This document shows positions 21,807-53,156 of a DNA stretch of 64,000 bases, one piece after another. Each line of letters starts with the position of its first letter. The stretch's first letter is position 1. The notes beneath the pieces are model-generated. The model saw only the letters and a program-made list of their open reading frames with translations, ran no database searches and was not told the DNA's origin. A program made the position numbers and the translations under genes. The stretch lies in the IMG/VR virus record IMGVR_UViG_3300025137_000016; one strand, given 5' to 3'. Source of the DNA: a virus.

Positions 21807-21811
21807 GTTGT

Positions 21812-22204
21812 ATGCCAAGTAATACTAGAACATTCTCAGACTTAGATTTAAACTTCACACCTCACCCAGTGACAGGTGATGTTGGATTTAAGTATGATGA
21901 GAATGCTGTGAAGCAATCAGTAAAGAACTTGGTGCTTACTCAAAACTTCGAGAGACCATTTCATTCTGAAATAGGTAGTACGATTCGTTCATTACTTTTT
22001 GAACCAGCTACTCCTATGACAAAAGAGATTCTGCGTAAGACTATCTCAGATACAATTACGAACTTTGAACCAAGAGTAGAATTAATTGATGTTATGATTA
22101 ACTATCGACAAGACGATACATCTGTTGATGTTAGAATAACATTTAAAGTACGCAACACATTTACTCCAATAGATGTGAGTCTTACTTTGGAGAGAACTAG
22201 ATAA
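21812..22204 (+). CDS. gp25: Baseplate wedge subunit
   Basis: FSDLDLNF..HP.TGD, AVKQSVKNLVLT...ERPF..EIGS, FEPRV. Confidence 0.95.
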   Translation: MPSNTRTFSDLDLNFTPHPVTGDVGFKYDENAVKQSVKNLVLTQNFERPFHSEIGSTIRSLLFEPATPMTKEILRKTISDTITNFEPRVELIDVMINYRQDDTSVDVRITFKVRNTFTPIDVSLTLERTR

Positions 22205-35760: not shown

Positions 35761-35988
35761 ATGTTTGTAGGAACTAAAGTAGAAGGAGAGCCAGACTTAA
35801 TAAAAGATAATCATAGCAAAGCGATTATTAATACAAATCAAAATGCTTATGCTACTTATAAGTCTCATCAAAAAAGTAAAATAGAAGAGCTCGCAGAAAA
35901 AGAGTCCATGAAAAAAGATATAAATAGTTTAAAGGATGATATATCCGATATAAAAAATATGTTAAAAAAATTAACAGGAGATAACTAA
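35761..35988 (+). CDS. Hypothetical coiled-coil protein
   Basis: KVEG...L.KD..S.AIIN, DI..LK.DI..IK.ML; SD GAGG. Confidence 0.8.
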   Translation: MFVGTKVEGEPDLIKDNHSKAIINTNQNAYATYKSHQKSKIEELAEKESMKKDINSLKDDISDIKNMLKKLTGDN

Positions 35989-36197
35989 TGGCAAAAGAAG
36001 CTGCAGTTGTGGTGGTCAGTCAGTCTGAGACTTTTGACCAATGGAGAATTAAAACGAATTCAAATATAACAAAGGGAAATAACCAAGAAGACAAACTTGG
36101 TGACCTTGCTTTGTTAGAGAATGGTGAAGCTGATCTAACGACAGCTGTAAATAACGCAAGAGAATACTCAATAGCAATTAGTATTGCACTGGGCTAA
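35988..36197 (+). CDS. Small fibre adaptor (TFDQWR.KTN N-terminus, IAISIALG C-terminus)
   Basis: SD AGGAG; TAATG overlap; terminal motifs. Confidence 0.75.
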   Translation: MAKEAAVVVVSQSETFDQWRIKTNSNITKGNNQEDKLGDLALLENGEADLTTAVNNAREYSIAISIALG

Positions 36198-36219
36198 TCT
36201 TTAATAAAGGGAAAACTAA

Positions 36220-36543
36220 ATGTCAAATGATTTTAAAAACGGATTAGCAAAAGATGTTGGGACTGCTGCTACCACTATATATACTGCTCCCAGCTTAAAG
36301 AATAGTATCGTAATAGAGTGCGATATTGCTAATACAACTAATGGTACTGTCACAGCTGATGCATTTATTACATCAGGTGGTGTTGATTACTATATTGTTA
36401 AGAATGCTCCAGTCCCAAGTGGTGGTTCTTTACAAGTAGTATCAAATCAAAAAGTTATTTTAGAAGCAGGCGAAGCACTAAAGGTACAATCTAACACTAC
36501 CTCTTCAGTAGATGTTGTCGCATCTATTCTAGAAGATGTATAG
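36220..36543 (+). CDS. Small beta-rich virion protein
   Basis: M.N.FKN, T.IYT.P, IVK...VP.G.SL, K.ILE.G..L. Confidence 0.75.
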   Translation: MSNDFKNGLAKDVGTAATTIYTAPSLKNSIVIECDIANTTNGTVTADAFITSGGVDYYIVKNAPVPSGGSLQVVSNQKVILEAGEALKVQSNTTSSVDVVASILEDV

Positions 36544-36553
36544 GAAATAAAGT

Positions 36554-38800
36554 ATGTCATATATCGGCTCACAAACTATTAATGCATCCACTACACTCAG
36601 TCGTCCTAGAGATGAATTCGAATGTAATGGTTCTACCAAAGGTTTTAAACTTAGTCAACAAGTTCCAGGTGCATTTGAATCTAATGTTCAAGTTGTTCTT
36701 GGTAATGTTATACAAGAGCCAGTCAATTCTTATACTATTACTGATGTATACAGATTAACATATTCATCACTATCACTAACTGCTGGTGCAGCTAATCCTG
36801 CAAGGGGAGATTTATTAACACAGGGAGCAAATACATTTTTAGTTGTAGATGCTACCACTGGAATTTTAGATGTCATCCCAGCTTCAATTAATGGTGCTGC
36901 TCCAACAACTGGAAGTGGTTTAACATTAAATGTTCCAAGTATTGATTTTGGTATAGATACTCAAGTCAAGCATAATGAAACAAGTATCGACTACACTACT
37001 GGAACAATTACAGGTGTAACAATTACCACAAATGGTACAGCTGGTTATGCAACAACTGATACGATTGTTATCGGTGCTCCAAATATTTCAGGAAACACTC
37101 AAGCTGCAGCAACTGCTTCAATATCTTCTGCTGGTACAGTTCAAAGTTTCACAATAACAAATGCTGGTTCAGGTTATTCATCTGTTCCTGCTGTCACAAT
37201 TACTGATAGTGGTAGTGGTGCGAACGCAACTGGAACTGCTGTATTAAACTCTGATGGTGGAATCGCTTCTATCACTTTAAATTCTGCTGGTACAGGTTAT
37301 GACCAGACAACAACTACTGTAGCAATTGAAGCTGCACAAACAGGTGGTGTACAAGCTACTGCCACAATTACTTCAGTAGATGGCTCTGGTGCTGTGACTG
37401 GAGTTTCATTAACAAATGCTGGTTCAGGTTATACTGCTTCACCAACTATATCTGTCACAACAGGTGGTGCTGCTGGAACTGGAGGAACTGGTACAATAAC
37501 AATGGCTGGTAATACTGCAACTGTTGTTGGTACAGGAACTGCATTTAGTTCAGAAGTCACTCCAGGACAAGCAATATTTATAGGTACTAATGCAATCGGA
37601 TTTGTTCAATCAGTTGCAAGTAATACTTCACTGACATTAAAAACTGCTGTGACAAGTGTTATTAGTGCTACTGCATTTATAATAGCAAACAGAGCAGAAT
37701 TAGCAATAACTTTTGCAGGGGATGAAGCAACTCTTACTGTTGATAGTCTAGCAAAATTAGATAGTCAAGGATTATTATTTAATGGTGTTCCAAGACCTGC
37801 TGAAAATTTATACATAAACCATCTTGGTGGTTCTAGTTTCCAAAATATTCCTTCTGCTGGTTCAGTCACTGAATCATCATTAGCAACGAATTTAAAAACT
37901 TTCACTGTAGATAAATTTACTACAAGTGGTTCAAGTACAAGTACATTTACATTATCGAAATCTCCACCAAGTGGTACTTCGATTCTAGTAATTATTAATG
38001 GTTCAGTACAAACTGAGACAACGCATTATAGTGTAAATGCTACGACACTAACATTGGTCACTCCTTTATCTTCTGGTGTGACAGTCACTGTTCTTCACTT
38101 GGGTGTAAGTACTGTTTCTAGAAATGCTTTTGTAGATGGTACACTAACTGATTCAGCATTCGCTGGTTTAACATTAACAGGTTCTAAGATTGCTAACAAT
38201 ACTATCGATTCTACTAAGTTAGCATCAGGTGCTGTGACTAATCATTTAGGATATACTCCAGTTGCATCAAATGCAGGAACTGCTCAAAGCATTGACTCAG
38301 CATTATCAGTTGTAGGATTGGTAGATTTAACTGCTGCTACTTCTGGAAATATTAAATTTCCAGGAACTCAAAATGCTTCTTCTAATGCTCAAACTTTAGA
38401 TGATTATCAAGAAAGTACATTAGCAACTGTATTAGGTTTTGGTGGTGCTCAAGTTGGTATGAGTAGTGGAGGTGCTGCAGTGAATACTACATACTTCACT
38501 AAGATAGGAAATAATATTAATATCAATATTGAAATGACTATTACTGCAAAAGGTTCTTCAACTGGAAATGCTGGAATAGTAATACCAGTCGCAGCAAATG
38601 CATCAGGTGCAGCTATGATTCCATTCTGGTTTGAGAATATGACAGCAGGAATTACAAGTGTTATTGGTACGATTGCTGGTGGCTCATCTTCTTGCTTACT
38701 ATTTAAAAGAGATACTGATGGAGAATATACTGCAATGACACATGCGGACTTTACCAATACTTCTCATTTAATTGGGTCTGGTGTTTACAGAAGTGCTTAA
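36554..38800 (+). CDS. Tail fibre/appendage protein
   Basis: MSYIG N-terminus, F..NGS..F.LS domains, repeated NAGSGY..P.V.I modules; S/T/G/A-rich. Confidence 0.8.
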   Translation: MSYIGSQTINASTTLSRPRDEFECNGSTKGFKLSQQVPGAFESNVQVVLGNVIQEPVNSYTITDVYRLTYSSLSLTAGAANPARGDLLTQGANTFLVVDATTGILDVIPASINGAAPTTGSGLTLNVPSIDFGIDTQVKHNETSIDYTTGTITGVTITTNGTAGYATTDTIVIGAPNISGNTQAAATASISSAGTVQSFTITNAGSGYSSVPAVTITDSGSGANATGTAVLNSDGGIASITLNSAGTGYDQTTTTVAIEAAQTGGVQATATITSVDGSGAVTGVSLTNAGSGYTASPTISVTTGGAAGTGGTGTITMAGNTATVVGTGTAFSSEVTPGQAIFIGTNAIGFVQSVASNTSLTLKTAVTSVISATAFIIANRAELAITFAGDEATLTVDSLAKLDSQGLLFNGVPRPAENLYINHLGGSSFQNIPSAGSVTESSLATNLKTFTVDKFTTSGSSTSTFTLSKSPPSGTSILVIINGSVQTETTHYSVNATTLTLVTPLSSGVTVTVLHLGVSTVSRNAFVDGTLTDSAFAGLTLTGSKIANNTIDSTKLASGAVTNHLGYTPVASNAGTAQSIDSALSVVGLVDLTAATSGNIKFPGTQNASSNAQTLDDYQESTLATVLGFGGAQVGMSSGGAAVNTTYFTKIGNNININIEMTITAKGSSTGNAGIVIPVAANASGAAMIPFWFENMTAGITSVIGTIAGGSSSCLLFKRDTDGEYTAMTHADFTNTSHLIGSGVYRSA
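37155..37432 (+). repeat. 23-bp exact direct repeat within the fibre gene (37155-37177 and 37410-37432)
   Basis: TAACAAATGCTGGTTCAGGTTAT occurs twice and encodes TNAGSGY. Confidence 0.85.
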
Positions 38801-38802
38801 GA

Positions 38803-38811
38803 AACTAAATA
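38803..38811 (+). promoter_or_regulatory. Late promoter AACTAAATA
   Basis: Intergenic, upstream of SD GAGGA. Confidence 0.7.
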
Positions 38812-38829
38812 GGGTTAGAGGAAATTAAA

Positions 38830-39060
38830 ATGCCAATATCAAGAATAAAAGGAACTAGTATAGATTCAAATATTGAGCTACAAGGGGAGTCAATTAGATT
38901 CCCGATTGGCACAGAAGCGAATAGACCTTCGCCTGCCAAAAAAGGAGATTTGAGATACAATAGTGATGTTGATAAAACAGAGATATATAATGGAGATAGT
39001 TGGGACGTGTATAATTCACAAGCTGTATCAATTGCATTATCTGTCGCACTTGGTGGCTAA
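38830..39060 (+). CDS. Small fibre adaptor (P.GT..RP..G..RYN domain, IALSVALG C-terminus)
   Basis: SD GAGGA; motifs as given. Confidence 0.8.
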   Translation: MPISRIKGTSIDSNIELQGESIRFPIGTEANRPSPAKKGDLRYNSDVDKTEIYNGDSWDVYNSQAVSIALSVALGG

Positions 39061-39063
39061 TAC

Positions 39064-39768
39064 ATGCATATTAATCTTCATGATGATGATCAGTGGAATT
39101 GGAATATAATTGCTACCAGATCAAAACAAAATTTCATGGTCACAAAGGCTATTGGAAAAAAAGGTCAAACTGGAGTCGTTGGGATTCCAAATATTGAAAA
39201 GTGTACATTAACTTGTGTACATACTGGATTTATAGAGATACTAGATGAGAATTTAGAAGTTCTCGGTACGATGGGTCCAGGAGCAAAGTTTCATTATGGA
39301 ATACTTGAACAAGGTCTTTCATTTATGAAACCAGAATTAGGAAGAGTCGATTACTTAGGAAAACCGATTCCTCCACCAGAAGTTTGTAAAAGAGTTGCTA
39401 GTTATACTCATGTTTTATTACGAACAGCTAGTGAAGAAAGTATTTTTTATTGTTGTCACGATCCTAAAGATATGTTTATATGGGAAGGTGATAACTATGC
39501 GTTCGGGAACTTTTCGGGATTTGATACTAGATTTGATTTAGAATTAGATTCGGAATTCGTTATTGAACCAAAAATGGGGACATTCTTTTTCGGATATGAT
39601 GACAACATTATAATCAACGGAAAAAAAGTACCTAAATATAACAAGATAAACTCTTATATATATGATGAACCAATGAGTATTAGAGGTCCAGAAGGAAGTT
39701 CTTTCTCAATCTTTTCTCAAGAGGGTATGTATAAGGAAACAAGTGGTAATCGAAGATACCAAATTTAA
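39064..39768 (+). CDS. Hypothetical protein, not fibre-like (possibly cupin-like)
   Basis: 234-aa ORF with globular composition among S/T/G-rich genes. Confidence 0.7.
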   Translation: MHINLHDDDQWNWNIIATRSKQNFMVTKAIGKKGQTGVVGIPNIEKCTLTCVHTGFIEILDENLEVLGTMGPGAKFHYGILEQGLSFMKPELGRVDYLGKPIPPPEVCKRVASYTHVLLRTASEESIFYCCHDPKDMFIWEGDNYAFGNFSGFDTRFDLELDSEFVIEPKMGTFFFGYDDNIIINGKKVPKYNKINSYIYDEPMSIRGPEGSSFSIFSQEGMYKETSGNRRYQI

Positions 39769-39784
39769 TTTATAGGAAAACTAA

Positions 39785-42700
39785 ATGGCTAAAAAACTCA
39801 TCGCAACAGGTTATACGATTAATGCATCACAGAATCAGATTACTGTGCCAGGGATTATTCAACCTGTAAGACTGCTATTAATTACGGATATTAATCTTAA
39901 TAAAATTTTATATAACTTTGCTGATCCTTCTACAGGATTATCAAACTATTCATTCAACTACACATCAGATACAACTACTTTCACAACATCGTTAGATTTA
40001 TCTGCTGCAGGTGTATTGAACTCACATGGATTACAAGTATTTTATGAAACTGATGTTTCTAAAATTGGGTTTTCAGAAGCGATGCTTGACCCAGTTAACA
40101 AGTTAAGAGTTTCAAATCCAGAAAACTTAATTGATACTGACTTTGAATATGGTCTCCAGTCTTCGAAATGGGAAACCCTTCAAACAGTTTTAAATATTCC
40201 TACAATTTATTCTCAGTCAGGTGATGTTCCTATTGAACAACTATCTGCTGTTACAACAACTTTAAACTCTAAACAAGTTAAGGTGACAACTACTGCCAAT
40301 CATGGATTGACTCTAGGAGATCCAATTCTAGTACAGGGTACGACCCTAAATGCTGCGGATGGTTTCTTCTTAGTATCTGGTTTGACAAATAGTTTCGAAT
40401 TCTTTTATGAAATGGATACTCAAGCAGAATCTTCTGCAACGATTTCAGGTTCATATACTTCAGTTATTCCTGCGAAATTCTTTGAAGGCTCTAACTTAAA
40501 TATTGATTTAACAACTACTGCTATTGAAACAAATGGTGCTGATCCATCTATAATGACTGTGACAACTTCTCAAACTCATGGACTAAAAGCTGGTACCAGA
40601 GTTTATTTAAGACAAACAGTTGGTCCGAAGAACTTAAGAATTGCAGATCCTACTGCTAACTCTTCAACTGCACCTGATGGTGGACCATGGGTTGATACTC
40701 GTGCTACCATTACAACATCAACTACAGTAAATGCTACCACTGCTATCGGTGGAGGTGGTGCTCAAGAATACCCTGTTGTGACTTGGGACTGGGAAGGTAC
40801 TTATCAATTGTATCTACAGTCATCAATGATCAATACAGGATCTGATAGAATTACTTGGACTTCTCATGGTTTTGCAGATAATGCTGCATTGCTTTACCAA
40901 ACTCAAATTAGAGGTCAAACAAATGGTGGTATAGTAGATGGTACAGTTTACTATGTAAATGTTGTTGACGCAAATACAATCGAATTATATTCTGACTACC
41001 AGACTCTGGGTTCACGAATGAATTTAACTTCATTTGATTTTACTAGAGGTCATCCAAGATTAACACTAGTATATAAAATTGAAGGAAATAATGGTAATGC
41101 AAGATATACTGCTTTCTATAAAAGAAATCTAGTTGAAGATAGAGCATTTACCAACGCACAGGCAACTCAAAATACTACTAACAGTCAGTCTTTCAATATG
41201 AGTATTACCACATCAGGTTATACACCTATTAAAGCAACTCTGACTAGAATCTATTATAATGGTAATTTAAATGATTCTGATGAAACTGTTGCTGTTTCAA
41301 TTACAGCTAGAAACTATCTAGGACTTGGTACAGGAAACTATAATGTCACTGTCGGTGGTGTAGGTGCTACTTCAGGAAACATATATCCAAATGAAGATGT
41401 GACTCGTTGTATCTATCAACAAGGTTCTAACTTCTACTTAACAATAAATTACACTCCAACTTCTTCAGTTATTGAAACTGATAAAGCTGGTACAGTGACC
41501 ACAGATTATCAATTAAGTTTCTACGCAGAAACTGACGAACTACCAACTTCAATGAACACAGCTCACTCTGGTTCTGACTTTGCTGCTGGTAATAATAACT
41601 TCGGTCTTGGTGGTTCACAAGGATCTAAATTATTTGCCTTTACTGGTAGAAGCACTGGAGCATCTGGTGGAACTTCTGCAGATAACTATGCAAACAATAA
41701 TGACCAAGCAAGATTTGGTACAGGTATTTTAAGACAAACAGGTGCAGCAACAGGTTCTGCAGTTTCTGGTATTCTTACTGTAAATTCTTCCGACTCTAAT
41801 AATGAAGTGTACTCAAGTAATAGTACGCATGTTTATTATGGTTTCGCAAATGAATTAACTTCATATAGAAATACTATTTACGCACCAGCTCACAACTTTA
41901 TTGATGGCAACTCTGCTGTTATTAATGTGACATCTTATTCAACAACTAACAGATTTGAGTTCGCTGATTCTTCAGGAAATAATGTTCCGATTGCTAATTC
42001 TCAGTTTAATGCTGTGATTACAGTTATCTCAGCTGACTACTTTAGATTACAAGTTTCGGAATCACCGAATACTGATGATATAACAGCTTTCCCTGAATCA
42101 TTCGTAGTTGCTACTGCAACACCGAATACCACTTATAACTCAATTTATATTTCAAACCATAAATTGACTGGTGGTAATTTAGCAACATACTCCACAGCTG
42201 GTACACAGATTGGTGGACTAACAGGTGGTGCTAACTATACTCTACAATACTTAAACGACTCTAGATTACTCATTAAGGATCCTAATCTATCCTCTGGGAG
42301 TGGTTCTGCTACCACGTCAGCCTTTGGGTCAACTTCAAACAATGCGACTCAATCGTTTACTGTAGACATCGAAACACCATTAGGAATTACACCATCAACT
42401 GCTACTATTACACAAATAGGATTCAGAGGTGACTTCAGAAATAATAATGAGTATGTCGACTTGACATTCTCTGATGGAGATGTATATAGAGTTGGTGCTA
42501 CTGGTGGTCAAGATACAAACCAGTTTCTAATTGATGAATCGTTTGGTTCTAAAAATATTTCAAACTTATTATCTGGTTCGCCAAAAACTATTTCTGTCAC
42601 AGTAAGTCCATCCTCTCAGGTAAACTTTGCTGTTGGTGGTATGTCTAACTGGTGGGAATTAAGATTCGGAGTAAGTGCTGCATCTGGTGATGTAATACTA

Positions 42701-45280
42701 TCTTCTGCTGGTTCTGGTGAACAACTATTTGAATTATCTGCAAACGAAGGTGCATACGATGGTGTGTATGGTATTTCCTCAACTCCAACTGCTGCATCCT
42801 TTACACTAACTTCTGAGTTTCAGATTCCTAACAGAGTCATAACATTTGATGGAAATTCAAAAGTAAATAGTGGTACAGATAAAATTACACTAGGAACTTC
42901 ATCTCCATATGTTCCTCATAACTTATATCCAGGAGAGCAAGTCGCATATAGTAATGGTGGCAATACTGATGTTGGTGTATTTACTGATGTATCACAACTT
43001 TATGTTATTGCAAATAACTCAATTGATATTCAGTTAGCATCTTCTTATGCTTCTGCGATTGCAGGAACTGCACTTAACTTAACTGCTACAAGTGGTACTC
43101 ATACATTAACTACCAACTCTCTTGTAAAAATGTCAAGAGCTGATGGTAATGTGTCATTCGCTAATGGCGGAAACATGATTACAGGTACTACCACAACATT
43201 CTTAAAAGATTATAAGAGATTTGATAATATCTATGTTGTTGTGAATGACCTTATTCAAGCATTTATCGTTGATCAAGTTATGACTGATGAGAAAATGAAA
43301 ATTCAAGGAACATTCCCAGCTGCTGGTTCGGATGTTGAATACTTTAAAATTACTCAGCTATCACTACGACCTGATGGATTCGCACTACACAAATCATTTG
43401 ATGGTGGTGTAGATATTACTGCAGGAACTTCTCCTAACAGTAAGATCGTGAGACAGTCTCGTAAATACTTTAGATATCAGTCTGGTAAAGGTATTCAGAA
43501 CTCATTTGCGATTAACTTCTCACCTGCTAAAGTTTTAGCATCTCTAACTTATGCTTCAAGTGGTAATGTTGTCACAGCTATTACACAAGAACCACATAAC
43601 TTAGTTGTTGGTGATAGAATCACAATCGAGAGTGCTGAAGTGACATTGGGAGAAAACTTATATCTTGGTACATTCCAAGTAGCAAGTGTTCCTAATGCGA
43701 CAACTTATACTTACACTGCTGCTGGTACTATTACGCAAACTAAAGCTGCAGGATTCCCAGAATATTATAGAGAATCTTGGAACGACTCGTTTGTTAGAGC
43801 TGGTATGTTTGATGACCAAAATGGATTCTTCTATGAGTACGATGGTCAGAAACTATATTGTGTAAGACGTTCTTCTACTCTACAAATTTCTGGTAAGATT
43901 AACACTACTGCTAACTCTCAAGTTGTGACTGGTACTACTACCTCGTTCACTACTCAGTTGGCTGCAGGAGATAAAGTATCAATCAGGGGACAATCTTATC
44001 AGATTGTTGCTGTTGATTCCGATCAAAGAATGATTGTACAGCCTTCTTATAAAGGTGTATCTGCAAGTAATGTTAAGATTACAAAAACTATCGATGTTAA
44101 AGTAGCACAAGAAGACTGGAGTGTTGACCCATGTGATGGATTAGGTGATACTGGATTTAATCTAAATGTACACAAAATTCAAATGGGATATATTGACTAC
44201 TCTTGGTATGGTGCTGGTAAAATTAGATTCGGTTTCAAAGATAGAGATGGACACGTTCATTACAATCACGAATTTATTCACAATAACAGATTAAACGAAT
44301 CATACTTTAGATCAGGAAACTTACCTGGAAGATATGAAATTGAAAATGGTAATGCACCATCATCAGCTCCTACTCTATTCCACTTTGGTACTTCTATCAT
44401 TATGGATGGTTTATTTGACGATGATAAAGCGTATCTATTCTCAGCTAACTCTAAACCAATGGTGTTTAAAGCTGGTCAAACAGATACCTTTACTACTGAT
44501 GCAGTATCAACTTTCGATCTAATTACTCTAGACAATAAGCGAGTATATGTTTATGCTCTACCTTGTTCACAGGCAGAAGCATCAGCGATATCTGTGGGTC
44601 AGTTAATTAAAGATGCTGAGGGTAGATTGCCAGCTGACTTCTTAGCCTATGTTACACAGGTTATTGTATCTGGTTCAAATTCAAAAGTATTTACATCTTA
44701 TCCTGCTACTTCTAACGCACCTGAAACTTCTACTTATCCAAACATAACATCTGGTGTCACAATGACATATGGAGAGAATGCTTATGGTGCAGGGTCTGCG
44801 GATATGACTAGACCTCACCCACTAATTTCTATTAGATTAGCACCTTCAGTTGATTCAGGTTTAACAGGATCTATCGGTCAAAAAGAAATTGTAAACCGAA
44901 TGATCTTATCACTTAACAACGCAGGTGTAACAACAAACAAAGATGTTACAGCATTCTTTATCTTAAATGGACTACCATCCAAATTAGATTATCTAAATGT
45001 TGAAACCCCTGCTCTTTCACAATTAATTTCTCATGATACAGGTGATACGATTCAGCAAGGTACTGTGGTCTTCTCTCAAAAAGTTTCTTCAGGTTCATTG
45101 AACATTGACTTAACTGATTTGATTGATATGGGTAATAGTATTCTTGGTGGGGATTCAGTATTCCCTGCAGGACCTGACTTAATGACTCTGGCTGTGCAGC
45201 CTTCTGATACTTCAGATATTAGCTCTAGTTCAGCATTCATCGTATCAGGTAAGTTATCATGGAAAGAGTCACAAACATAA
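39785..45280 (+). CDS. Large virion structural/fibre protein (1831 aa)
   Basis: DPVNKLRVSNPENLIDTDFEYGLQ..KWE, RQSRKYFRYQSGKG, WYGAG.IRFG; T..HGL..GD repeats. Confidence 0.85.
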   Translation: MAKKLIATGYTINASQNQITVPGIIQPVRLLLITDINLNKILYNFADPSTGLSNYSFNYTSDTTTFTTSLDLSAAGVLNSHGLQVFYETDVSKIGFSEAMLDPVNKLRVSNPENLIDTDFEYGLQSSKWETLQTVLNIPTIYSQSGDVPIEQLSAVTTTLNSKQVKVTTTANHGLTLGDPILVQGTTLNAADGFFLVSGLTNSFEFFYEMDTQAESSATISGSYTSVIPAKFFEGSNLNIDLTTTAIETNGADPSIMTVTTSQTHGLKAGTRVYLRQTVGPKNLRIADPTANSSTAPDGGPWVDTRATITTSTTVNATTAIGGGGAQEYPVVTWDWEGTYQLYLQSSMINTGSDRITWTSHGFADNAALLYQTQIRGQTNGGIVDGTVYYVNVVDANTIELYSDYQTLGSRMNLTSFDFTRGHPRLTLVYKIEGNNGNARYTAFYKRNLVEDRAFTNAQATQNTTNSQSFNMSITTSGYTPIKATLTRIYYNGNLNDSDETVAVSITARNYLGLGTGNYNVTVGGVGATSGNIYPNEDVTRCIYQQGSNFYLTINYTPTSSVIETDKAGTVTTDYQLSFYAETDELPTSMNTAHSGSDFAAGNNNFGLGGSQGSKLFAFTGRSTGASGGTSADNYANNNDQARFGTGILRQTGAATGSAVSGILTVNSSDSNNEVYSSNSTHVYYGFANELTSYRNTIYAPAHNFIDGNSAVINVTSYSTTNRFEFADSSGNNVPIANSQFNAVITVISADYFRLQVSESPNTDDITAFPESFVVATATPNTTYNSIYISNHKLTGGNLATYSTAGTQIGGLTGGANYTLQYLNDSRLLIKDPNLSSGSGSATTSAFGSTSNNATQSFTVDIETPLGITPSTATITQIGFRGDFRNNNEYVDLTFSDGDVYRVGATGGQDTNQFLIDESFGSKNISNLLSGSPKTISVTVSPSSQVNFAVGGMSNWWELRFGVSAASGDVILSSAGSGEQLFELSANEGAYDGVYGISSTPTAASFTLTSEFQIPNRVITFDGNSKVNSGTDKITLGTSSPYVPHNLYPGEQVAYSNGGNTDVGVFTDVSQLYVIANNSIDIQLASSYASAIAGTALNLTATSGTHTLTTNSLVKMSRADGNVSFANGGNMITGTTTTFLKDYKRFDNIYVVVNDLIQAFIVDQVMTDEKMKIQGTFPAAGSDVEYFKITQLSLRPDGFALHKSFDGGVDITAGTSPNSKIVRQSRKYFRYQSGKGIQNSFAINFSPAKVLASLTYASSGNVVTAITQEPHNLVVGDRITIESAEVTLGENLYLGTFQVASVPNATTYTYTAAGTITQTKAAGFPEYYRESWNDSFVRAGMFDDQNGFFYEYDGQKLYCVRRSSTLQISGKINTTANSQVVTGTTTSFTTQLAAGDKVSIRGQSYQIVAVDSDQRMIVQPSYKGVSASNVKITKTIDVKVAQEDWSVDPCDGLGDTGFNLNVHKIQMGYIDYSWYGAGKIRFGFKDRDGHVHYNHEFIHNNRLNESYFRSGNLPGRYEIENGNAPSSAPTLFHFGTSIIMDGLFDDDKAYLFSANSKPMVFKAGQTDTFTTDAVSTFDLITLDNKRVYVYALPCSQAEASAISVGQLIKDAEGRLPADFLAYVTQVIVSGSNSKVFTSYPATSNAPETSTYPNITSGVTMTYGENAYGAGSADMTRPHPLISIRLAPSVDSGLTGSIGQKEIVNRMILSLNNAGVTTNKDVTAFFILNGLPSKLDYLNVETPALSQLISHDTGDTIQQGTVVFSQKVSSGSLNIDLTDLIDMGNSILGGDSVFPAGPDLMTLAVQPSDTSDISSSSAFIVSGKLSWKESQT

Positions 45281-45292
45281 GAGGACTCAAAT

Positions 45293-45904
45293 ATGGCATA
45301 TCTCGGTAGAGACATATCTTTCGGAAGTTTTGAAAAACAAACCTTTGCGACAAATGGAGCAGATACTAGTTTTAATCTAGACTTCAATTCACCTAGAGAA
45401 GAAGCACTTCTTGTAATTAAAGATGGTGTGGTACTAAAACCTGGAACTGGATATACTTTATCCGCAGGTGGTGTATCAATTAATATTACAGGTGCTGCAG
45501 TTGCTTCATCAGTAGATTTATATTGTATATTCTTAGGAAAAGAGCTTACAGTACAAAATGTTTCTGATAATAGTATTACTCACTCAAAATTATCAACCCC
45601 AATTAGGCAATCAGTAAAGACTGACACAAGTGTAATTCAAGCAGGAGCAACCTTAGTTTCTACTAGACATTATTTTGTAGACACTACTGCTGGTGCAATT
45701 ACAGTAATATTTCCAACTTCCCCAACACTAGGTGACACTGTATATTTATCTGATGCTTATGGAACTTGGAATACCAATAACTGTATTGTAAATCCTAGTG
45801 GTGCTACAATAAATGGTACGTCTGGCAACTCCACACTATCTTCACAATACGATTCAAAGGAATACATATATATCGGTGGTGCAGCTGGTTGGCGAACTGT
45901 TTAA
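45293..45904 (+). CDS. Tail fibre-associated protein
   Basis: MAYLGR N-terminus; YFVDTT.GA.T..P..P..GD and Y....GW C-terminal module. Confidence 0.8.
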   Translation: MAYLGRDISFGSFEKQTFATNGADTSFNLDFNSPREEALLVIKDGVVLKPGTGYTLSAGGVSINITGAAVASSVDLYCIFLGKELTVQNVSDNSITHSKLSTPIRQSVKTDTSVIQAGATLVSTRHYFVDTTAGAITVIFPTSPTLGDTVYLSDAYGTWNTNNCIVNPSGATINGTSGNSTLSSQYDSKEYIYIGGAAGWRTV

Positions 45905-45906
45905 TT

Positions 45907-45915
45907 AACTAAATA
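45907..45915 (+). promoter_or_regulatory. Late promoter AACTAAATA
   Basis: Intergenic, upstream of SD AAGGAG. Confidence 0.72.
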
Positions 45916-45932
45916 GTCGTAAGGAGAAACCA

Positions 45933-46268
45933 ATGGCTGCTATTACAGATATATTCGTTGACCAAGGAACAGATTTTACTCTACAACTTTCTGTTGTAGA
46001 TACTGCAGGATCAGCAAAAAATTTAACTGGGGCAACCATTACAGCTCAAGCTAGAAAAGACTATACCAGTTCTTCAGCGACAGCTTCTTTCACTACAGCA
46101 ATCACTAATGCTGTTGGTGGTATTTGTACAATAAGTTTAACAGCTGCAACTACTGCGGGAATTAAAGCTGGAAGATATATGTATGATGTAAATGTTGTTG
46201 ATAATACTTCAACAACTATAAGAGCAGTTGAAGGAATGATGACAATTAGACCAGAGGTAAGTAGATAA
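45933..46268 (+). CDS. Virion adaptor protein (BppU-N-like Ig fold)
   Basis: DQGTDF, LTG....Q.RK, L....T....GRY.YDV, R.VEG...P.V. Confidence 0.75.
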   Translation: MAAITDIFVDQGTDFTLQLSVVDTAGSAKNLTGATITAQARKDYTSSSATASFTTAITNAVGGICTISLTAATTAGIKAGRYMYDVNVVDNTSTTIRAVEGMMTIRPEVSR

Positions 46269-46269
46269 T

Positions 46270-46572
46270 ATGCCAGAAGTAAAGAGTACCATCGCAACAC
46301 AAGAAGGAGTTAATCCTTCAGTTCCGTCTACAGCTACTCAGACAACAACTGCAGTCGCATCTGCAAGCTCTACCCAATCTGCTACTGTTTCTACAGTAGG
46401 AATACAAGGGGAAAGTGGTACAGCTGTTAATTTAGAAGCAGCACAAAATGTAGATACTGCTACTGATGGTTTAGAAAATGGTTCAGTTCTAGTATATAAA
46501 ACATCCACAAGTAAGTGGCAAACAACAAAATTATTGGACGAAGGTCAGTCTTTCGATTCAGGACAATATTAA
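46270..46572 (+). CDS. Small fibre linker protein ending DSGQY
   Basis: G.QG..G, DVD-like, GSVLVY....KW module. Confidence 0.75.
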   Translation: MPEVKSTIATQEGVNPSVPSTATQTTTAVASASSTQSATVSTVGIQGESGTAVNLEAAQNVDTATDGLENGSVLVYKTSTSKWQTTKLLDEGQSFDSGQY

Positions 46573-46584
46573 TAGGAGAAAAGC

Positions 46585-48417
46585 ATGGCAGCAATTTTAA
46601 GAATTAAAAGATCGAGTACAGGAGGAAATCCATCCACACTGGGAACAGGTGAATTAGCATACTCGGCTCTTACTGATAACGGATCTAATGGTGGCGATAG
46701 GCTATACATTGGTTTCGGTACAGAAACTGGCGGAAACGCAGCAAGTCATTATGTAATTGGTGGTAAATATTTTACAGACACAATCGACGCAGCAGCAAGT
46801 GCTAACACAGCAAATGTTCTTGTAAAAAGAGATGGAAGTGGAAACTTTTCAGCAGGAACTATTACTGCGACTCTAACAGGTAATGCTGCCACAGCAACTA
46901 CAGCTGCAGCTTGGACTGATGCTAGAACATTAACTATCGCTGGTGATGTAGATGGTTCTGGTTCTATTGATGGTTCTGGCGATGTCACAATTACTACTGC
47001 TCTTGATGTAACAGGTGTAAGTGCTGCCACTTACGGATCTGCTTCTCAAGTGCCAAGTATTACTGTTGACGCAAAAGGTCGAGTCACTGCTGCAAGTACA
47101 AATTCAATTTCAACTTCATTCACACTAACTGATGGAACTACTTCTCAAACAATTGCAGGTGGCAATACATTAACTGTCACACCTGGAGAAGGAATAAATG
47201 CTGTCGTTAGTGCTACTGATACATTAACTATTTCTGGAGAAGATGCTACTGATTCTAATAAAGGTGTCGCATCTTTCGGTGCTGGCTTAACAGTTTCTTC
47301 TGGAGCAGTTTCATTAACAAATAATTCAGTCACGATTGGTTCTGACGCAGTTGCTCTTGGAGCAAGTAGAACTGATTTAAATGGCTTAACAAGTGTAGAT
47401 GTTGATAATCTTACAATAGATGGTAATGCTATTTCAAGTACAGACGCAAATGGAAACATAGAACTGTCACCAAATGGTACAGGAACTGTTGTTGTTGCTT
47501 CTGGTTATGAAGGAAGAGCAGGACTAACTTCTCAGTCATTAGTAAATAAAGCATATGTTGATTCTGCTACTGCTGGGTTATCAGTTAAGTCACCTGTTAA
47601 GGTTGCTACAACAGCAAACCTTGCAGCAACTTATAATAATAGTGCTGGTACATTAACAGCAAATTCAAACTTCGCATTATCAGTTGATGGTGTCACAGTT
47701 TCAGTGGGCGATAGAGTATTGGTTAAAGACCAATCTACTGCTCCTCAAAATGGATTCTATAAAGTCACAGCAACTGGTTCAGGTTCTGCTGCTTTCGTTT
47801 TAACTAGAACTCCTGACGCAGATGCTGCTTCAGAGTTAGTCGCTGGTGCTTTTGCTTTCGTTGAAGAAGGTACTGCAAATGCTGACAATGGTTATGTGAT
47901 GGCAACTGATGGAGCTGTCACGCTGGGCACGACTTCTATTACTTTTGAGCAATTCTCAGGAGCTGGTCAGATATCTGCTGGTGATGGATTAGCAAAAGTT
48001 GGAAACGCATTAAGTCTTAATGTAGATGATAGTTCTTTAGAAATTAACGCAGACTCTGCTAGAGTAAAAGCTCTTGGTGTTACGAATGCTATGTTAGCAG
48101 GAAGTATCGCAAATGGTAAACTCGCAAACTCTGCTGTCACAATCAATAGTAATGCACTATCTTTGGGTGCTGCACTAACATTAGATACAGATGATATTGG
48201 AGAAGGTTCAACTAATGAGTACCACACAACTGGTAGAGCAAGAGCTGTACTAAGTGTCACTTCTGGTACTGGGTTATCTTATAATAGTAGTACTGGTGTG
48301 TTCGCTGGAATAAATTCAACAGCATCTGTAAAAGGTGTGGCGTCTTTTGCATCAGCAAACTTTACAGTGACAAGTGGAGCAGTGGCAATAACTGGTGTTG
48401 ATGGCGGAACATACTAA
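46585..48417 (+). CDS. Tail fibre protein ending DGGTY
   Basis: IKRSS...P..L..GELAY N-terminus; NKAYVD, GDRVLVKDQ..QNG.Y module. Confidence 0.85.
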   Translation: MAAILRIKRSSTGGNPSTLGTGELAYSALTDNGSNGGDRLYIGFGTETGGNAASHYVIGGKYFTDTIDAAASANTANVLVKRDGSGNFSAGTITATLTGNAATATTAAAWTDARTLTIAGDVDGSGSIDGSGDVTITTALDVTGVSAATYGSASQVPSITVDAKGRVTAASTNSISTSFTLTDGTTSQTIAGGNTLTVTPGEGINAVVSATDTLTISGEDATDSNKGVASFGAGLTVSSGAVSLTNNSVTIGSDAVALGASRTDLNGLTSVDVDNLTIDGNAISSTDANGNIELSPNGTGTVVVASGYEGRAGLTSQSLVNKAYVDSATAGLSVKSPVKVATTANLAATYNNSAGTLTANSNFALSVDGVTVSVGDRVLVKDQSTAPQNGFYKVTATGSGSAAFVLTRTPDADAASELVAGAFAFVEEGTANADNGYVMATDGAVTLGTTSITFEQFSGAGQISAGDGLAKVGNALSLNVDDSSLEINADSARVKALGVTNAMLAGSIANGKLANSAVTINSNALSLGAALTLDTDDIGEGSTNEYHTTGRARAVLSVTSGTGLSYNSSTGVFAGINSTASVKGVASFASANFTVTSGAVAITGVDGGTY

Positions 48418-48462
48418 GATTAATTTCTTAGTAATTTATATTTTAAATTTTAGGAATGGTTC

Positions 48463-50478
48463 ATGTCAACTATAATCAAAGTAAAACGATCGGAGACCTC
48501 TAGCAGTGTACCAAGTACATCGGATTTAGCTGTTGGAGAAATAGCAGTAAATACTGCTGATAAAAAGATTTATGTTCGTGCTGCTGCAGGTGTAGTTGAA
48601 GTCGCTAATAATTCCGCATCTGGTGCTGGTGATATTACAGATGTATTAACAGCAAGTGGATCTGCTCTAACAGGTGGAACAACTTCTGGTTCAGCAAACT
48701 TAGCAGTATCAGTTGACGATTCGTCAATACAAATCTCAGGAAACAATTTACAAGTAAAAGCATCAGGTATCACTAATGGTATGCTGGCGAATAGTAGTGC
48801 TACACTTAATTCACAAACACTTACTCTAGGCAGTTCTCTAACATTAGATACAGATAATATTGGTGAGGGTTCAAACCTTTACTTTACAAATGAAAGAGCA
48901 GATGATAGAATCGCTACTCTAATCTCTAATGGAACAGGACTAACTTGGACATATGATGATACTGCTGGTTCATTAACTGGAGCTGTTTCTTTATCAGGTT
49001 TCAATACTGGTAATTTACCAGAGGGTGCTCAGCTTTATTATACTACTACAAGAGCAAATACTGATATAGATGCTAGAGTTAATAAAACTTTCGTAGATAA
49101 TTTAAGTGTAGTTGCTGCAAGTGCAGGTACTGCTACTTCACTAGCAAGTGGACAAAATTTTTCAATTACTGGCGATGTCCTAGCAAGTGCCATTTCTTTT
49201 GATGGTTCAGGTGCAGTGACTCTTAATGCTAACATTGCAGCCAATACTATTTCCCCAACAGAATTAAATGTCACAGATGCTGCAGGTGCATTACAATCTG
49301 ATGGAGCAGGTAATTTATCATTCGCTCCAGCTACTGCATCATTCGCAGCAATAGGTGAACATGTATTACCATCAGCTGACGATACTTACGATCTTGGATC
49401 AGCTGATAAAAAATGGAGAAACTTATATGTTGGTGGAAATACAATATTTTTAGATGACGCAAAAATTATGAAAGACTCAGCCACTAATCAATTAATGATG
49501 AATGCTGGTGTCACTAATTCTATTGCGTCTATAACTATTACGAATGCTGGGGCTGGTTATTTAGAACAACCAACTATAACTTTTCCCAATCCAGATAATT
49601 CTGGTGTAGATACTATCGTTATGACTGACGCAGGTGGTGGTTATACTTCTGCCCCAGTTGTCACCATTGACGCACCAAGTAAAACTCCTTCTGTACAAGC
49701 AACAGCAACAGCTAACATGACAGACGATGGTACAGGAAATAATACATTCGCAGTTGCTAGTATCACAATCACTGCTGGTGGATCAGGTTATCCGACTGCA
49801 CCAAATGTATCAATAGCTGCAACTCCAAACGCAGGAAGTGGTGCTGTTCAAGCAACTGGTACCACTACAATATCAACATCAACAAATGGTGGTAAGATTG
49901 CAGCTGCATTTTCTACTATTAATGTGGGTACTGGAGAAATTACAGCAATAACTTTATCATCTGCTGGGGCTGGATATACTAGTCTACCAACCATTACAGT
50001 TGAAAGTCCGAATAAAGATATAACATTTAATAGTACTGTATATAATGATTATGCTTCAGGAAATAATTATTATACATTTTCAGGTGGTATAAATGAACAG
50101 CTAGATATTATACAAGGTCAAACTTATACATTTGATTTATCTTCTTCTACGCATGCTACGCATCTATTTGCTTTAAGTGGTACTGCCGATGGTACACATG
50201 GTGGAGGAACAAAATATACATCAGGTGTGACATACACTGGTACGCAAGGAACGACTGGTGCGAAAATGGTATTAGTTGTTGACGCAAATACACCAACAAC
50301 TCTATATCCGTACTGTGAAACACACTCAGGTATGGGGGGAAGTGGATCCTTTACCAAGCTGGCAAGTGGAACAACTGGGGTATTGACTCCTGTTCTAGCT
50401 AGTTATGATGACCAATTAGACCAAAAATTCGCTATGCAACCCTTCTCGATAGCAATGAGTATCGCACTAGGAGCATAA
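48463..50478 (+). CDS. Tail fibre protein with a cupredoxin-like motif, ending IAMSIALGA
   Basis: VKRS...P...L..GEIA.N; YDLGS..KWR; G.GY..P repeats; YC..H.GM. Confidence 0.85.
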   Translation: MSTIIKVKRSETSSSVPSTSDLAVGEIAVNTADKKIYVRAAAGVVEVANNSASGAGDITDVLTASGSALTGGTTSGSANLAVSVDDSSIQISGNNLQVKASGITNGMLANSSATLNSQTLTLGSSLTLDTDNIGEGSNLYFTNERADDRIATLISNGTGLTWTYDDTAGSLTGAVSLSGFNTGNLPEGAQLYYTTTRANTDIDARVNKTFVDNLSVVAASAGTATSLASGQNFSITGDVLASAISFDGSGAVTLNANIAANTISPTELNVTDAAGALQSDGAGNLSFAPATASFAAIGEHVLPSADDTYDLGSADKKWRNLYVGGNTIFLDDAKIMKDSATNQLMMNAGVTNSIASITITNAGAGYLEQPTITFPNPDNSGVDTIVMTDAGGGYTSAPVVTIDAPSKTPSVQATATANMTDDGTGNNTFAVASITITAGGSGYPTAPNVSIAATPNAGSGAVQATGTTTISTSTNGGKIAAAFSTINVGTGEITAITLSSAGAGYTSLPTITVESPNKDITFNSTVYNDYASGNNYYTFSGGINEQLDIIQGQTYTFDLSSSTHATHLFALSGTADGTHGGGTKYTSGVTYTGTQGTTGAKMVLVVDANTPTTLYPYCETHSGMGGSGSFTKLASGTTGVLTPVLASYDDQLDQKFAMQPFSIAMSIALGA

Positions 50479-50497: not shown

Positions 50498-51469
50498 ATG
50501 GCAAATCCAAATACCAGAGAACAATTAAAAGATTATTCATTAAGATCACTTGGTTCGCCTGTGATCGAAATCAATGTAGCTGAAGAACAGCTGGAAGATC
50601 GTTTAGATGAAGCGATTGAATACTTTAATATTAATCACTGGAATGGTACCGAACGAGCTTACTTTCAACATGTAATTACAGGCTCTACAATAACACTAAC
50701 TGCTGCAGTCGCAGGAAACTTTGAGATTGGTGAAGTTGTTGAAGGAAGTGTTTCAGGATGTAGAATATCTGTTCATAGAAGTTCTAAAGATTCAAGTATA
50801 GTCTACCAACAAATTAATAATAAAACTGCAACTAGACAAGGATTTACTAATGGGGAAACTCTTACAGGTGAATCTTCTGGAACAACAGCTGTAATTCAAA
50901 GTGTTACAAAAGGTGATACAGAAAATGGATATGTTCCTGTTGGTGATGAAATATTTGGAGTAAACAAAGTATTCACAGTATTTTCTAACACTACTGATTC
51001 TAGAAATATATTCGACTTACAATATCAATTAAGATTAAATGATTTATACGACTTAACTTCTACAAGTATAGTTTATTATACTACTGTGATGGGTCACCTA
51101 TCATTGCTTGATATGATGTTAAATGGTAAAACTCTATATCGCTTTAATAGAATGCACAATAAATTATTCCTTGACTTAGATTGGCGAGGAGATGTACAGA
51201 TTGGCGATTTTGTAATGGCAGATGTTTATAAAGCATTAGATAGTACAGAATATCCAAAAGTATTTGGCGAGCCATGGTTGAAAAAATATACTACTGCTCT
51301 GTTCAAGAAACAGTGGGGACTTAATCTTAAAAAGTTTTCGGGACTAGTATTGCCTGGAGGAGTTTCAATGGATGGCGATGGTATATATAACGAAGCCATG
51401 AACGAACTACAAGCACTAGAAGACGAACTCGTAGGAAAAGGTGCACCATTAGAGTTCTTTACAGGGTAA
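50498..51469 (+). CDS. gp13: Neck protein
   Basis: R..LKDY.LR.LG.PVIEINV..EQ..DR, WLKKY.TA..K.QWG.NL.KF...LPGG. Confidence 0.96.
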   Translation: MANPNTREQLKDYSLRSLGSPVIEINVAEEQLEDRLDEAIEYFNINHWNGTERAYFQHVITGSTITLTAAVAGNFEIGEVVEGSVSGCRISVHRSSKDSSIVYQQINNKTATRQGFTNGETLTGESSGTTAVIQSVTKGDTENGYVPVGDEIFGVNKVFTVFSNTTDSRNIFDLQYQLRLNDLYDLTSTSIVYYTTVMGHLSLLDMMLNGKTLYRFNRMHNKLFLDLDWRGDVQIGDFVMADVYKALDSTEYPKVFGEPWLKKYTTALFKKQWGLNLKKFSGLVLPGGVSMDGDGIYNEAMNELQALEDELVGKGAPLEFFTG

Positions 51470-51473
51470 TTAA

Positions 51474-52403
51474 ATGGCTGGAAGAAATACTTACATATCT
51501 CAAGGGGTCACCTCTGAACAAAATTTAATAGAGTCTTTAATAATAGAGTCCCTAGCAATTTATGGTCAGAATGTTTTTTATATTCCTAGAACGCAAGTCG
51601 CCAAAGATGAAATTTTAGGCGAAGATCCATTATCAAAATTTGAACAAGCATTTCCTATTGAGATGTATTTTGAAAATGTAGATAACTTAGGAGGACAAGG
51701 TCCATTCATTCAAAAGTTTGGTTTGTTTAACGAGTTAAGTGCTACTCTAGTTTGTGCTAGAGCAAGGTGGACAGAATTAGTTGGTACGCATGGTAATACC
51801 TTTGTGCCTAATAGACCCAACGAAGGAGATTTAATTTACTTCCCTCTTACAAAAGGTTTATTTGAAATTAAATTTGTACAGCATCAAGATCCTTTTTATC
51901 AATTAGGAAAACTGTACACATATAAAATGGAAGTAGAATTATTTCAATATGCTTCTGAAAGACTTAATACTGGAGTTGCCGAGATTGATCAATTTGAAGA
52001 ACTTAAAACTTTCTCTTCTGATCCAACAGTCACTGAAGCTATGTTTGTTGATAGTATAACATTCTCAAATGTCGGAGCAGGATATACTTCAGCACCAACA
52101 TTAACATTTACAGGTGGTACACCTAGCACTGTTGCTACTGCTACTTGTACTATTAATGCAACGACAGGTAAAGTCAATGGTGTTAATATTACCAATGTAG
52201 GAAATGGATATAATGCTGTTCCTACTATAACTATTTCAGCTCCTCCTAGTGGGGGAACGCAAGCAGTTGCAGTTGCTACCATTAAACTTAATGTAGATAA
52301 ACAAGGTGGCTATGCTGACAACTTAGATCTTGAAACTGAAAGACAACCAAGTACGAATGAAAAAGTTGCTTGGTCTGAAAACAATCCATTTGGAGAATTC
52401 TAA
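51474..52403 (+). CDS. gp14: Neck protein
   Basis: EQ.L.E.L..E....YG....Y.PR, KFG, RPNEGDLIYFP, ELFQY..E, E.NPFG. Confidence 0.96.
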   Translation: MAGRNTYISQGVTSEQNLIESLIIESLAIYGQNVFYIPRTQVAKDEILGEDPLSKFEQAFPIEMYFENVDNLGGQGPFIQKFGLFNELSATLVCARARWTELVGTHGNTFVPNRPNEGDLIYFPLTKGLFEIKFVQHQDPFYQLGKLYTYKMEVELFQYASERLNTGVAEIDQFEELKTFSSDPTVTEAMFVDSITFSNVGAGYTSAPTLTFTGGTPSTVATATCTINATTGKVNGVNITNVGNGYNAVPTITISAPPSGGTQAVAVATIKLNVDKQGGYADNLDLETERQPSTNEKVAWSENNPFGEF

Positions 52404-52406
52404 GTT

Positions 52407-53156
52407 ATGCTAGGCAAGAATCCATTCTATCACCAGACAGTAAGAAACTGTATCATAGGTTTTGGAAAAATGTTTTCAGATGTAGAGTTTGAAAGATTAG
52501 ACAATAACGATAATGCTGTACAAAAAATACTAGTACCAATCGCTTATGGTCCAAAAGAAAAATGGGTGCAAAGATTAGAGCAAGATCCTACTTTAGAAAA
52601 TCAAGTATACACTACTCTTCCTCGTATGTCATTTGAAATGGCTGCACTATCATACGATCCTCTTAGAAAAACTAATAGGATGGGAACAGTTAAAGTAAAT
52701 AGAACATCACTTAGTGGTGGGTCTGGTAAAAGGGATAAACTATTTGCTCCTGTACCATTTAACTTAGATATGCAATTAAATTGTTTAACTAAAACTACTG
52801 AAGATGGTTTACAAATTATAGAGCAAATACTTCCATTTTTTACACCAGAATTTACAATGAGAATTAAAAACACCAATACTACTATGGATACAGAAACTGA
52901 TGTTCCAATAATACTAAATAGTACCAGCTTCATAGATGATTTTGACGGAACTTTTGAGATTCGTAGATTCGTCACTTGGACGCTAAACTTCACATTGAAG
53001 GTATTATTATTTGGTGGAGTAGATCAAACTGGTTCTGTAATAACCAGTACATTTATAGATTTAGGAAATCCTGACGAACAACACAAAGCAACAGGTGACC
53101 TAAATAATTTAACAATAACTGATCTTGGCTGGAACGAAACCCAGAAAACAGATTAA
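52407..53156 (+). CDS. gp15: Tail sheath stabilizer / tail terminator
   Basis: FYH..R....FG..F, VPIAYGPKEK, LPRMSFE, QI.EQILPFF.P. Confidence 0.96.
   Translation: MLGKNPFYHQTVRNCIIGFGKMFSDVEFERLDNNDNAVQKILVPIAYGPKEKWVQRLEQDPTLENQVYTTLPRMSFEMAALSYDPLRKTNRMGTVKVNRTSLSGGSGKRDKLFAPVPFNLDMQLNCLTKTTEDGLQIIEQILPFFTPEFTMRIKNTNTTMDTETDVPIILNSTSFIDDFDGTFEIRRFVTWTLNFTLKVLLFGGVDQTGSVITSTFIDLGNPDEQHKATGDLNNLTITDLGWNETQKTD

Follow-up and report, generated by a model that had tools for sequence, protein, structure and literature searches.

Linkage of a short C-terminal peptide tag to a jelly-roll virion protein in the fibre cluster of a T4-like marine myophage suggests a candidate fibre joint

The DNA analysed here, a stretch of 64,000 nucleotides from a virus (IMG/VR virus record IMGVR_UViG_3300025137_000016; hereafter the window), carries the host-recognition (fibre) cluster of a T4-like marine myophage; among named phages, Methylophilales phage Melnitz and Pelagibacter phage Mosig are nearest to it. 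All long open reading frames (ORFs) from 28412 to 53156 are located on the + strand, and within this region three unrelated proteins end in the same hydrophobic peptide of about ten residues, which we call the tag. The first of them is followed by a gene for a 107-amino-acid (aa) virion protein with a predicted all-beta jelly-roll fold, for whose homologues we use the name FKN, derived from their MxxFKN start. This report is concerned with the tag, with its linkage to the FKN gene and with the fibre joint that the two may form.

The minimal tag bearer, p69 (35988..36197, +; tag 36168-36194), consists of an N-terminal TFDQWR..N..GDL motif that leads directly into YSIAISIALG, with REYSIAISIALG as its C-terminus. 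It is followed by FKN (36220..36543, +), which we regard as a candidate connector or socket on the basis of its AlphaFold2 (AF2) fold and its gene linkage, and by a 748-aa fibre with an MSYIG start (36554..38800, +), whose N-terminal class is typical after an FKN gene and which contains fibre-type repeats according to PHROG. The second bearer, p76 (38830..39060, +; tag 39028-39057), starts with MPISRIK, continues with an RP..P..GDLRYN..E.Y.G..W module and ends in SIALSVALGG (C-terminus AVSIALSVALGG); next to it lies the gene for a 234-aa protein (39064..39768, +) of a type adjacent to p76-type genes, which is predicted to be bicupin-like with two small beta-barrels (AF2 pLDDT 80). The third bearer, fibre 2 (671 aa; 48463..50478, +; tag 50446-50475), has a divergent Mtd_N-like start, PHROG matches spanning residues 524-626 and an FSIAMSIALGA end (C-terminus PFSIAMSIALGA), and its gene is located directly upstream of gp13.

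Searching all six frames of the window with the expression [ILVM]A[ILVMF][SAT][ILVM]A[ILVM]G, we obtained matches in exactly three places, each 0-1 residue before a stop, compared with 0.006 matches expected from composition and none in 200 shuffles. The window consensus can be written as S-I-A-x-S-[IV]-A-L-G, its three occurrences in six frames are all C-terminal, and all three tags belong to one tag subtype. The preliminary description of the region had stated that three proteins share one hydrophobic tag, which is borne out by these matches. Since the codons of the three copies are not the same, selection acts on the peptide and not on a DNA repeat, and together with the conservation described below this agrees with the earlier view of the tag as a selected, portable C-terminal module on unrelated proteins. 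With a relaxed expression, 88 of 90 matches in 1.28 Mb of related loci were found at most 4 residues from a stop (a loose pattern at the DNA level yielded mostly noise), and the general pattern is (S/A)-h-A-h-(S/A/G)-(I/V)-A-L-G plus 0-3 residues, in which small and large hydrophobics alternate. This alternation, the strict terminal position and the 0-3 extra residues fit a strand or plug that would be buried in a partner.

Other interpretations of the peptide were considered as well. A role in degradation or PDZ-type signalling, for which the C-terminal residue would have to be exact, is unlikely, because 0-3 variable residues come after the glycine. The tag as the mature end after S74 autocleavage was rejected, the pre-cleavage sequence of HTVC008M being unlike the tag, and Pfam gave no match to the Peptidase_S74 domain in p69, p76, 48463, the Mosig 126-aa protein or the Melnitz tag proteins. 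The S-I-A-L-G core was presumed to resemble YadA-head repeats, and a YadA-head domain was not found in 48463 (Pfam, E ≤0.1).

The tag was found on at least six unrelated N-terminal classes, with bearers ranging from 69 aa to >1000 aa. Homologues of p69 retain it at lengths of 69-389 aa, their conserved ends enclosing a fibre-like middle that varies; tblastn with p69 against named phages returned zero matches, and a word search in a large protein collection returned solely close marine relatives, so that the family is detectable only via its two short ends. The N-terminal RP..P..G..RYN..E.Y.G..W module of p76, which looks like a foldon-like hairpin, is common to many longer cyanophage proteins with varied C-terminal domains (e.g. 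a glycine-rich one in S-ShM2), and p76 homologues of 76-80 aa that carry the tag occur in marine and freshwater relatives. A 39064-type protein always comes after p76-type tag proteins. Among the relatives fetched with gp13, the gene directly upstream of gp13 ends in the tag wherever this gene was readable, and in a freshwater group (gp13 ~58% identical) this gene has a different fibre body and a clear Mtd_N start. A complete 144.8-kb freshwater genome, whose gp13 is ~58% identical, encodes precisely the three tag bearers of the window, and each occupies the corresponding position. Melnitz has three bearers whose bodies are partly different (167 aa, 211 aa and a 71-aa protein before gp13), and Mosig encodes a 126-aa protein (21535-21915) that combines an IKPKRS start with the tag; the latter is named 'putative peptidase S74' in GenBank, yet it is without a Pfam S74 match at E ≤1. 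At the level of sequence, the tag is a portable, autonomous C-terminal module of 10-14 residues, upstream of which fibres with the same tag subtype have nothing in common.

Using FKN as the anchor for locus scans, we found that the protein encoded upstream begins with TF[DE][EQ]WR, is 69-389 aa long and ends in the tag in 78 of 80 metagenomic loci, and that the downstream gene of these loci nearly always has an M..Y[IL]G start. Second FKN copies are preceded by MAYIG...ALAIALG proteins, and all Mosig-type FKN genes (80 loci) by an IKPKRS...LA[YF].IVFGG protein. With tblastn, FKN was detected in 113 named phage records of very different kinds, 14 of which were inspected, namely the podoviruses HMO-2011, CRP-13, HTVC010P, HTVC035P and HTVC103P, the myoviruses Rhizobium RHph_I1_18, Yersinia YerA41, Bordetella PHB04 and Delftia PhiW-14, and the cyanophage myoviruses S-TIM5, S-SRM01, S-PRM1, S-SM2 and S-SCSM1, whose hosts comprise alpha-, beta- and gamma-proteobacteria and cyanobacteria. 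The gene directly upstream of FKN has a tag-like end in all 14 of these phages, and an M-x-[YFH]-[IV]-G-type start is present downstream in at least 9 of them. In the whole genome of HTVC035P, a single ORF out of 260 has a tag-like end, and this is the T7-type tail fibre gp46 beside FKN, which places the tag at the distal end of a primary fibre. A second protein of RHph_I1_18, MSYIG...VVSVAIFG (5589-6308), has a tag-like end with no FKN gene after it, and tags without an adjacent FKN thus also occur outside the group of the window. That the tag should predict the family of the downstream gene had been put forward in the preliminary description, and this is what we observed, the families being the 36220-type jelly roll, the 39064 type or gp13. 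The suggestion that 36220 acts as a putative socket is likewise backed by the gene neighbourhood, as no other gene shows so tight a linkage to the tag over such a wide range of phages.

The tag subtype tracks the FKN clade on the FKN tree and not the body or the N-terminal class of the bearer. HMO-2011 and HTVC103P, which have MAGYxRQS fibres, and HTVC035P, which has a different fibre, carry a common GFA[IV]AMAIAL tag and fall into one FKN clade (SH-aLRT 97). CRP-13 has a fibre start of the HMO-2011 type, but an ALALAIALG tag and a different FKN clade. Neither tag nor FKN is present in HTVC008M and S-ShM2, and the HTVC008M equivalents of the tag proteins (8146-10026 and 15700-18906) end in Peptidase_S74 intramolecular chaperone domains (E ~1e-13). 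Judged from these comparisons, co-variation and co-absence are the pattern expected of two elements working together.

The AF2 model of 36220 is an all-beta jelly roll with a pLDDT of 95. In the PDB it has only generic jelly-roll matches (TM ~0.5, best Foldseek ~0.55, best Z 9.8) that merge into a continuous range of unrelated jelly rolls, among them Ena spore-appendage subunits, phage cement/knob domains and TNF/C1q, and no solved FKN homologue was found there. Many close predicted relatives (TM ~0.9) are present in BFVD, some of which are named virion structural protein, as are the FKN relatives annotated in S-TIM5 and S-SCSM1. The model of 39064 (AF2 pLDDT 80, see above) matches HutD, pirin and PA5104 at TM ~0.4 and shows no obvious relationship to FKN, and a hidden Markov model of 60 FKN sequences revealed no second FKN copy in the window, 39064 and gp13 included. 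A single co-fold of three copies of p69 with three copies of 36220, based on their own alignments and run without controls, scored 0.27 against a mark of 0.32. Longer proteins in which an FKN domain is fused to a fibre (Rosetta-stone proteins) were not found in a word-limited search, which constitutes weak evidence; its sole match was a 307-aa combination of a DegT-type aminotransferase and an FKN domain on a 1.6-kb ENA contig, most likely an assembly chimera.

Based on the observed motifs, their conservation and terminal position, the gene linkage and the subtype co-variation, and on folds that are predicted, we propose that tag, FKN and the next fibre may form a joint, a reading to which we assign a probability of roughly 0.55. 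The tag would be a portable docking peptide of ~10 residues, its cognate partner would most likely be the 107-aa jelly-roll protein 36220, and FKN would in turn carry the next fibre with its M-x-Y-[IL]-G N-terminus, which here is 36554. The joint would thus run from a proximal adaptor or fibre with the tag via the jelly-roll connector to the distal fibre. p69 would represent the minimal adaptor, consisting of an N-terminal anchor motif and the tag only, and p76 and fibre 2, which have the same tag subtype, would either rely on this connector too or dock to the conserved product of the gene that follows each of them (39064 and gp13, respectively).

Several observations weigh against such a joint. 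Tags outnumber FKN genes both in the window (three to one) and in Melnitz (three to two), and two tag classes precede other genes (the 39064 type and gp13), for which reason FKN cannot be shown to serve all tags. The ends of the tags differ (G, GG, GA, GGS or none), and distant versions such as PLIIALED and ALIWAIVMG are only loosely similar. The metagenomic loci are interrelated, so that their large counts do not represent independent events, and the FKN tree was built quickly and leaves many forks open; the more independent evidence comes from the 14 named phages and the subtype swaps. Furthermore, we infer every physical contact, that between tag and FKN included, as well as the assembly order and the stoichiometry.

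Adjacency and co-transfer also fit a relation between chaperone and substrate equally well. A C-terminal fibre end and a small downstream gene that move together and co-vary are the classic signature of a fibre and its chaperone, and FKN could, like Tfa or gp38, be an assembly factor or tip protein for fibres, with the tag as its signal to fold or trimerise the upstream protein and no permanent joint. The Peptidase_S74 ends of the HTVC008M equivalents point in the same direction, as tag and FKN in trans could replace an intramolecular chaperone. We nevertheless consider this unlikely, given that FKN relatives are annotated as virion structural proteins, that p69 has almost nothing to fold, and that conservation extends to the downstream M-x-Y-[IL]-G gene, which speaks for a unit of three parts; if FKN were a tip protein that stays in place, as T2 gp38 is, the distinction from the proposed joint would be less sharp.

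The tags that are not followed by FKN, two of the three in the window, could also indicate that the tag acts alone and that the FKN linkage is inherited gene order. The tag would then be a self-association or capping strand of trimers, or a fusion-peptide-like tip touching the host envelope. Its alternation of small and large hydrophobics suits a beta-strand zipper or a membrane-active peptide, and it is conserved across phages of different hosts. The FKN linkage, however, persists where the entire bearer has been exchanged and where transfer has taken place between phages of unrelated types, the subtypes co-vary, and receptor-contacting tips are normally variable and not conserved, so that we regard an independent role of the tag as very unlikely.

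A second kind of junction lies upstream of fibre 2. It begins with a 111-aa LtfC-like beta-sandwich protein (45933..46268, +), which matches phrog_1084 (E 4e-23) and phrog_3304 'L-shaped tail fiber protein assembly' (E 3.5e-19) and reaches 22.7 bits with Pfam LtfC (PF23926), under the cut-off of 27. The 100-aa protein encoded next (46270..46572, +) ends in DSGQY, and fibre 1 (610 aa; 46585..48417, +) starts with MAAILRIKRSSTGGNPST, which contains the divergent Mtd_N-like pattern ILRIKRS..P..L..GELA, and ends in DGGTY; fibre 2 starts with MSTIIKVKRSETSSSVPST. These ends and IKRS starts are present as the preliminary description had reported them. All 13 distinct homologues of the small 46270 protein end in [DN][SAG]G.[FY], each followed by an IKRS-type fibre gene, and throughout the phage group such ends of 46270-type proteins and of fibre 1 precede an IKRS-type start, either directly or after a small charged protein. 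The gene order from LtfC-like protein via small protein (..DSG.F/Y) and fibre 1 (IKRS..DGG.Y) to the next IKRS/Mtd_N protein, which had been noted for the window, is conserved within the group; outside it, no D-G-G-x-Y/IKRS pairing was seen in the named phages inspected. In addition, the two fibres share a homologous segment (residues 437-566 in fibre 1, 37-162 in fibre 2; 42% identity, E 1e-18), with the distal portion of the former repeating the proximal portion of the latter.

With Pfam Mtd_N (PF18454), 48463 scores 14.2 bits (E 0.042), below the gathering score of 26.3 bits, and 46585 gives no match. An hhalign comparison of the IKRS starts with bona fide Mtd_N proteins at the same gene position (a reference set confirmed by Pfam at 4e-13 and PDB 1yu0 at 1e-13) resulted in a probability of 88% (E 2.8e-6, 36 columns), and the homologues that occupy this position in freshwater relatives and in HTVC008M clearly belong to Mtd_N. 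By sequence comparison, the IKRS N-termini of 46585 and 48463 are thus divergent Mtd_N domains, and the 'sockets' of this junction, which had been taken as undescribed, are not new. An LtfC-like collar protein would head the operon, and the D-[SG]-G-x-[YF] ends of both the small protein and fibre 1 before products with Mtd_N starts suggest serial end-to-start assembly. The junction belongs to known kinds, and its D-G-G-x-Y to IKRS order is conserved only within the phage group.

The original idea went further and joined 45933, 46270, 46585 and 48463 end to start into one chain, the tag of 48463 then plugging into 36220 or 39785, so that anchors would share or swap distal receptor-binding modules. 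The conserved gene order speaks for it, as do the single subtype of the three window tags and the operon of Mosig, which continues straight into tag, FKN and an M-A-I-L-G-Y protein. Against this, 48463 is followed in the window by gp13 and not by FKN, nothing ties 39785 to the tag, and the restriction of the D-G-G-x-Y/IKRS pairing to one phage group applies here as well, which makes the complete chain quite unlikely.

The remaining genes of the cluster frame these elements. Upstream, a giant protein of 2446 aa with DUF4815 (28412-35752), whose homologues in HTVC008M and Mosig are annotated VrlC, is followed by a small virion structural protein of 75 aa (phrog_473; 35761..35988, +; PHROG E 7e-19), and genes of the latter type are always found between the giant DUF4815/VrlC-like gene and the first tag gene (Melnitz, Mosig, HTVC008M and metagenomic relatives). 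Downstream of 39064 lie the genes for an 1831-aa virion structural protein (39785..45280, +; phrog_5838, E 4e-153) and for a 203-aa MAYLG protein (45293..45904, +), which resembles the N-terminal region of T4 gp9/gp10 and an N-terminal tailspike adaptor (Pfam, PHROG). The latter protein scores 22.3 bits (E 1.5e-4) with Pfam T4_gp9_10_N (PF07880), under the 25-bit cut-off, and its residues 85-200 match PHROG tail/tailspike N-terminal families down to E 4e-15. A relationship of its start and its F..G...F.L domain with those of the MSYIG fibre 36554 had been proposed; the starts and the similarity are real, but the similarity is weak, the best alignment of the 45293 domain (residues 12-102) being to an additional copy inside 36554 (residues 449-558; BLASTP E 9e-4). 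These starts, the tag and the DGG.Y/IKRS ends are all conserved in relatives. The cluster is bounded by the neck genes gp13, gp14 and gp15 (50498..53156, +; assigned by PHROG and Pfam), a T4-like module in T4 gene order, with gp13 matching phrog_211 (E 9e-35), gp14 T4_neck-protein (PF11649, E 1.5e-30) and gp15 T4-gp15_tss (PF16724, E 6e-65), the latter two above the cut-offs. The gp13-like neck protein (50498-51469, 323 aa) is ~80 residues longer than that of freshwater relatives (246 aa), the extra segment corresponding to about residues 60-140. T4 gp13 has an extra domain of its own as well, to which fibritin binds; the docking of fibritin in T4 takes place on domain III of gp13 (PMC12929629).

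Several known systems resemble parts of the proposed joint. In phage DT57C, LtfC forms a collar into which the termini of the fibre LtfA insert by beta-strand donation (PMC10713586). By analogy, this pair is a precedent for fibre attachment by short terminal beta-strands: in DT57C/T5, the fibre donates short terminal strands to a small beta-sandwich socket, and an LtfC-like gene (45933) is present in the cluster of the window. The docking strands of DT57C are N-terminal and their socket is LtfC, whereas in the window the peptide stands at the C-terminus and the protein linked to it, 36220, would be contacted as a jelly roll that has no sequence relationship to LtfC. Divergent Mtd_N domains at the N-termini of 46585 and 48463 recall Mtd of the Bordetella phage BPP-1 (PDB 1yu0), of which only the first ~36 residues are related; the window copies stay below the Pfam threshold and the remainder of each protein differs.

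Fibre assembly via terminal domains, both serial and branched, is well established (T4 gp34-37; DT57C LtfC/LtfA, PMC10713586). The gp34-gp35-gp36-gp37 joints of T4 and the fibre-tip/chaperone pairs gp37-gp38 and lambda Stf-Tfa are comparable systems. As there, successive fibre segments would be encoded by consecutive genes in the window, separated by a small protein at the joint or tip, and a fibre C-terminus co-evolves with a small downstream gene; however, no relation in sequence or fold was detected, and the element of the window is a conserved ~10-residue peptide instead of a variable C-terminal domain. CBA120 and G7C have branched tailspike adaptors with T4 gp10-like domains and N-terminal anchors of at least 100 residues. 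The gp9/gp10-like region of 45293 and the hanging of fibres or spikes on one another via small conserved terminal modules are common features, but the anchor domains of these phages contrast with the C-terminal decapeptide and separate jelly-roll protein of the window. The Bacillus Ena endospore appendage (PDB 7a02, 8pdz), among the best matches of FKN (Z ~9), also joins jelly-roll subunits by a short terminal connector peptide; at ~13% identity the score is that of a generic jelly roll, the connector belongs to the same polypeptide and is disulfide-linked, and these are not phage proteins.

Neither literature searches on the motif and on pelagiphage structures nor the PDB yielded a paper or a solved structure for the tag or FKN. 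We tentatively suggest, with less confidence than for the joint itself, that a plug of ~10 residues and a jelly-roll connector of ~107 aa might constitute a widespread undescribed system, in which both elements move jointly among unrelated podo- and myoviruses and couple whatever adaptor lies upstream to an M-x-Y-[IL]-G fibre; in the window, three anchors might share one connector and thereby give rise to a combinatorial or branched fibre set. As modular fibres joined via terminal elements are already known, the novelty would concern the device, not the concept.

Joints between fibres, and between fibre and virion, decide which receptor-binding modules a phage carries, and they are also handles for the re-targeting of phages. 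If the proposed joint is real, a short portable peptide with a dedicated small connector would provide a simple general rule for reading fibre architecture from sequence, and structural biology would gain a well-defined target, the complex of tag, connector and fibre. Conservation of the cassette extends from SAR11 podoviruses to myoviruses of Yersinia, Bordetella, Rhizobium and cyanobacteria, and the rule would cover very abundant, mostly uncultured marine phages, whose respective genes are now annotated as 'hypothetical' or 'virion structural protein'.

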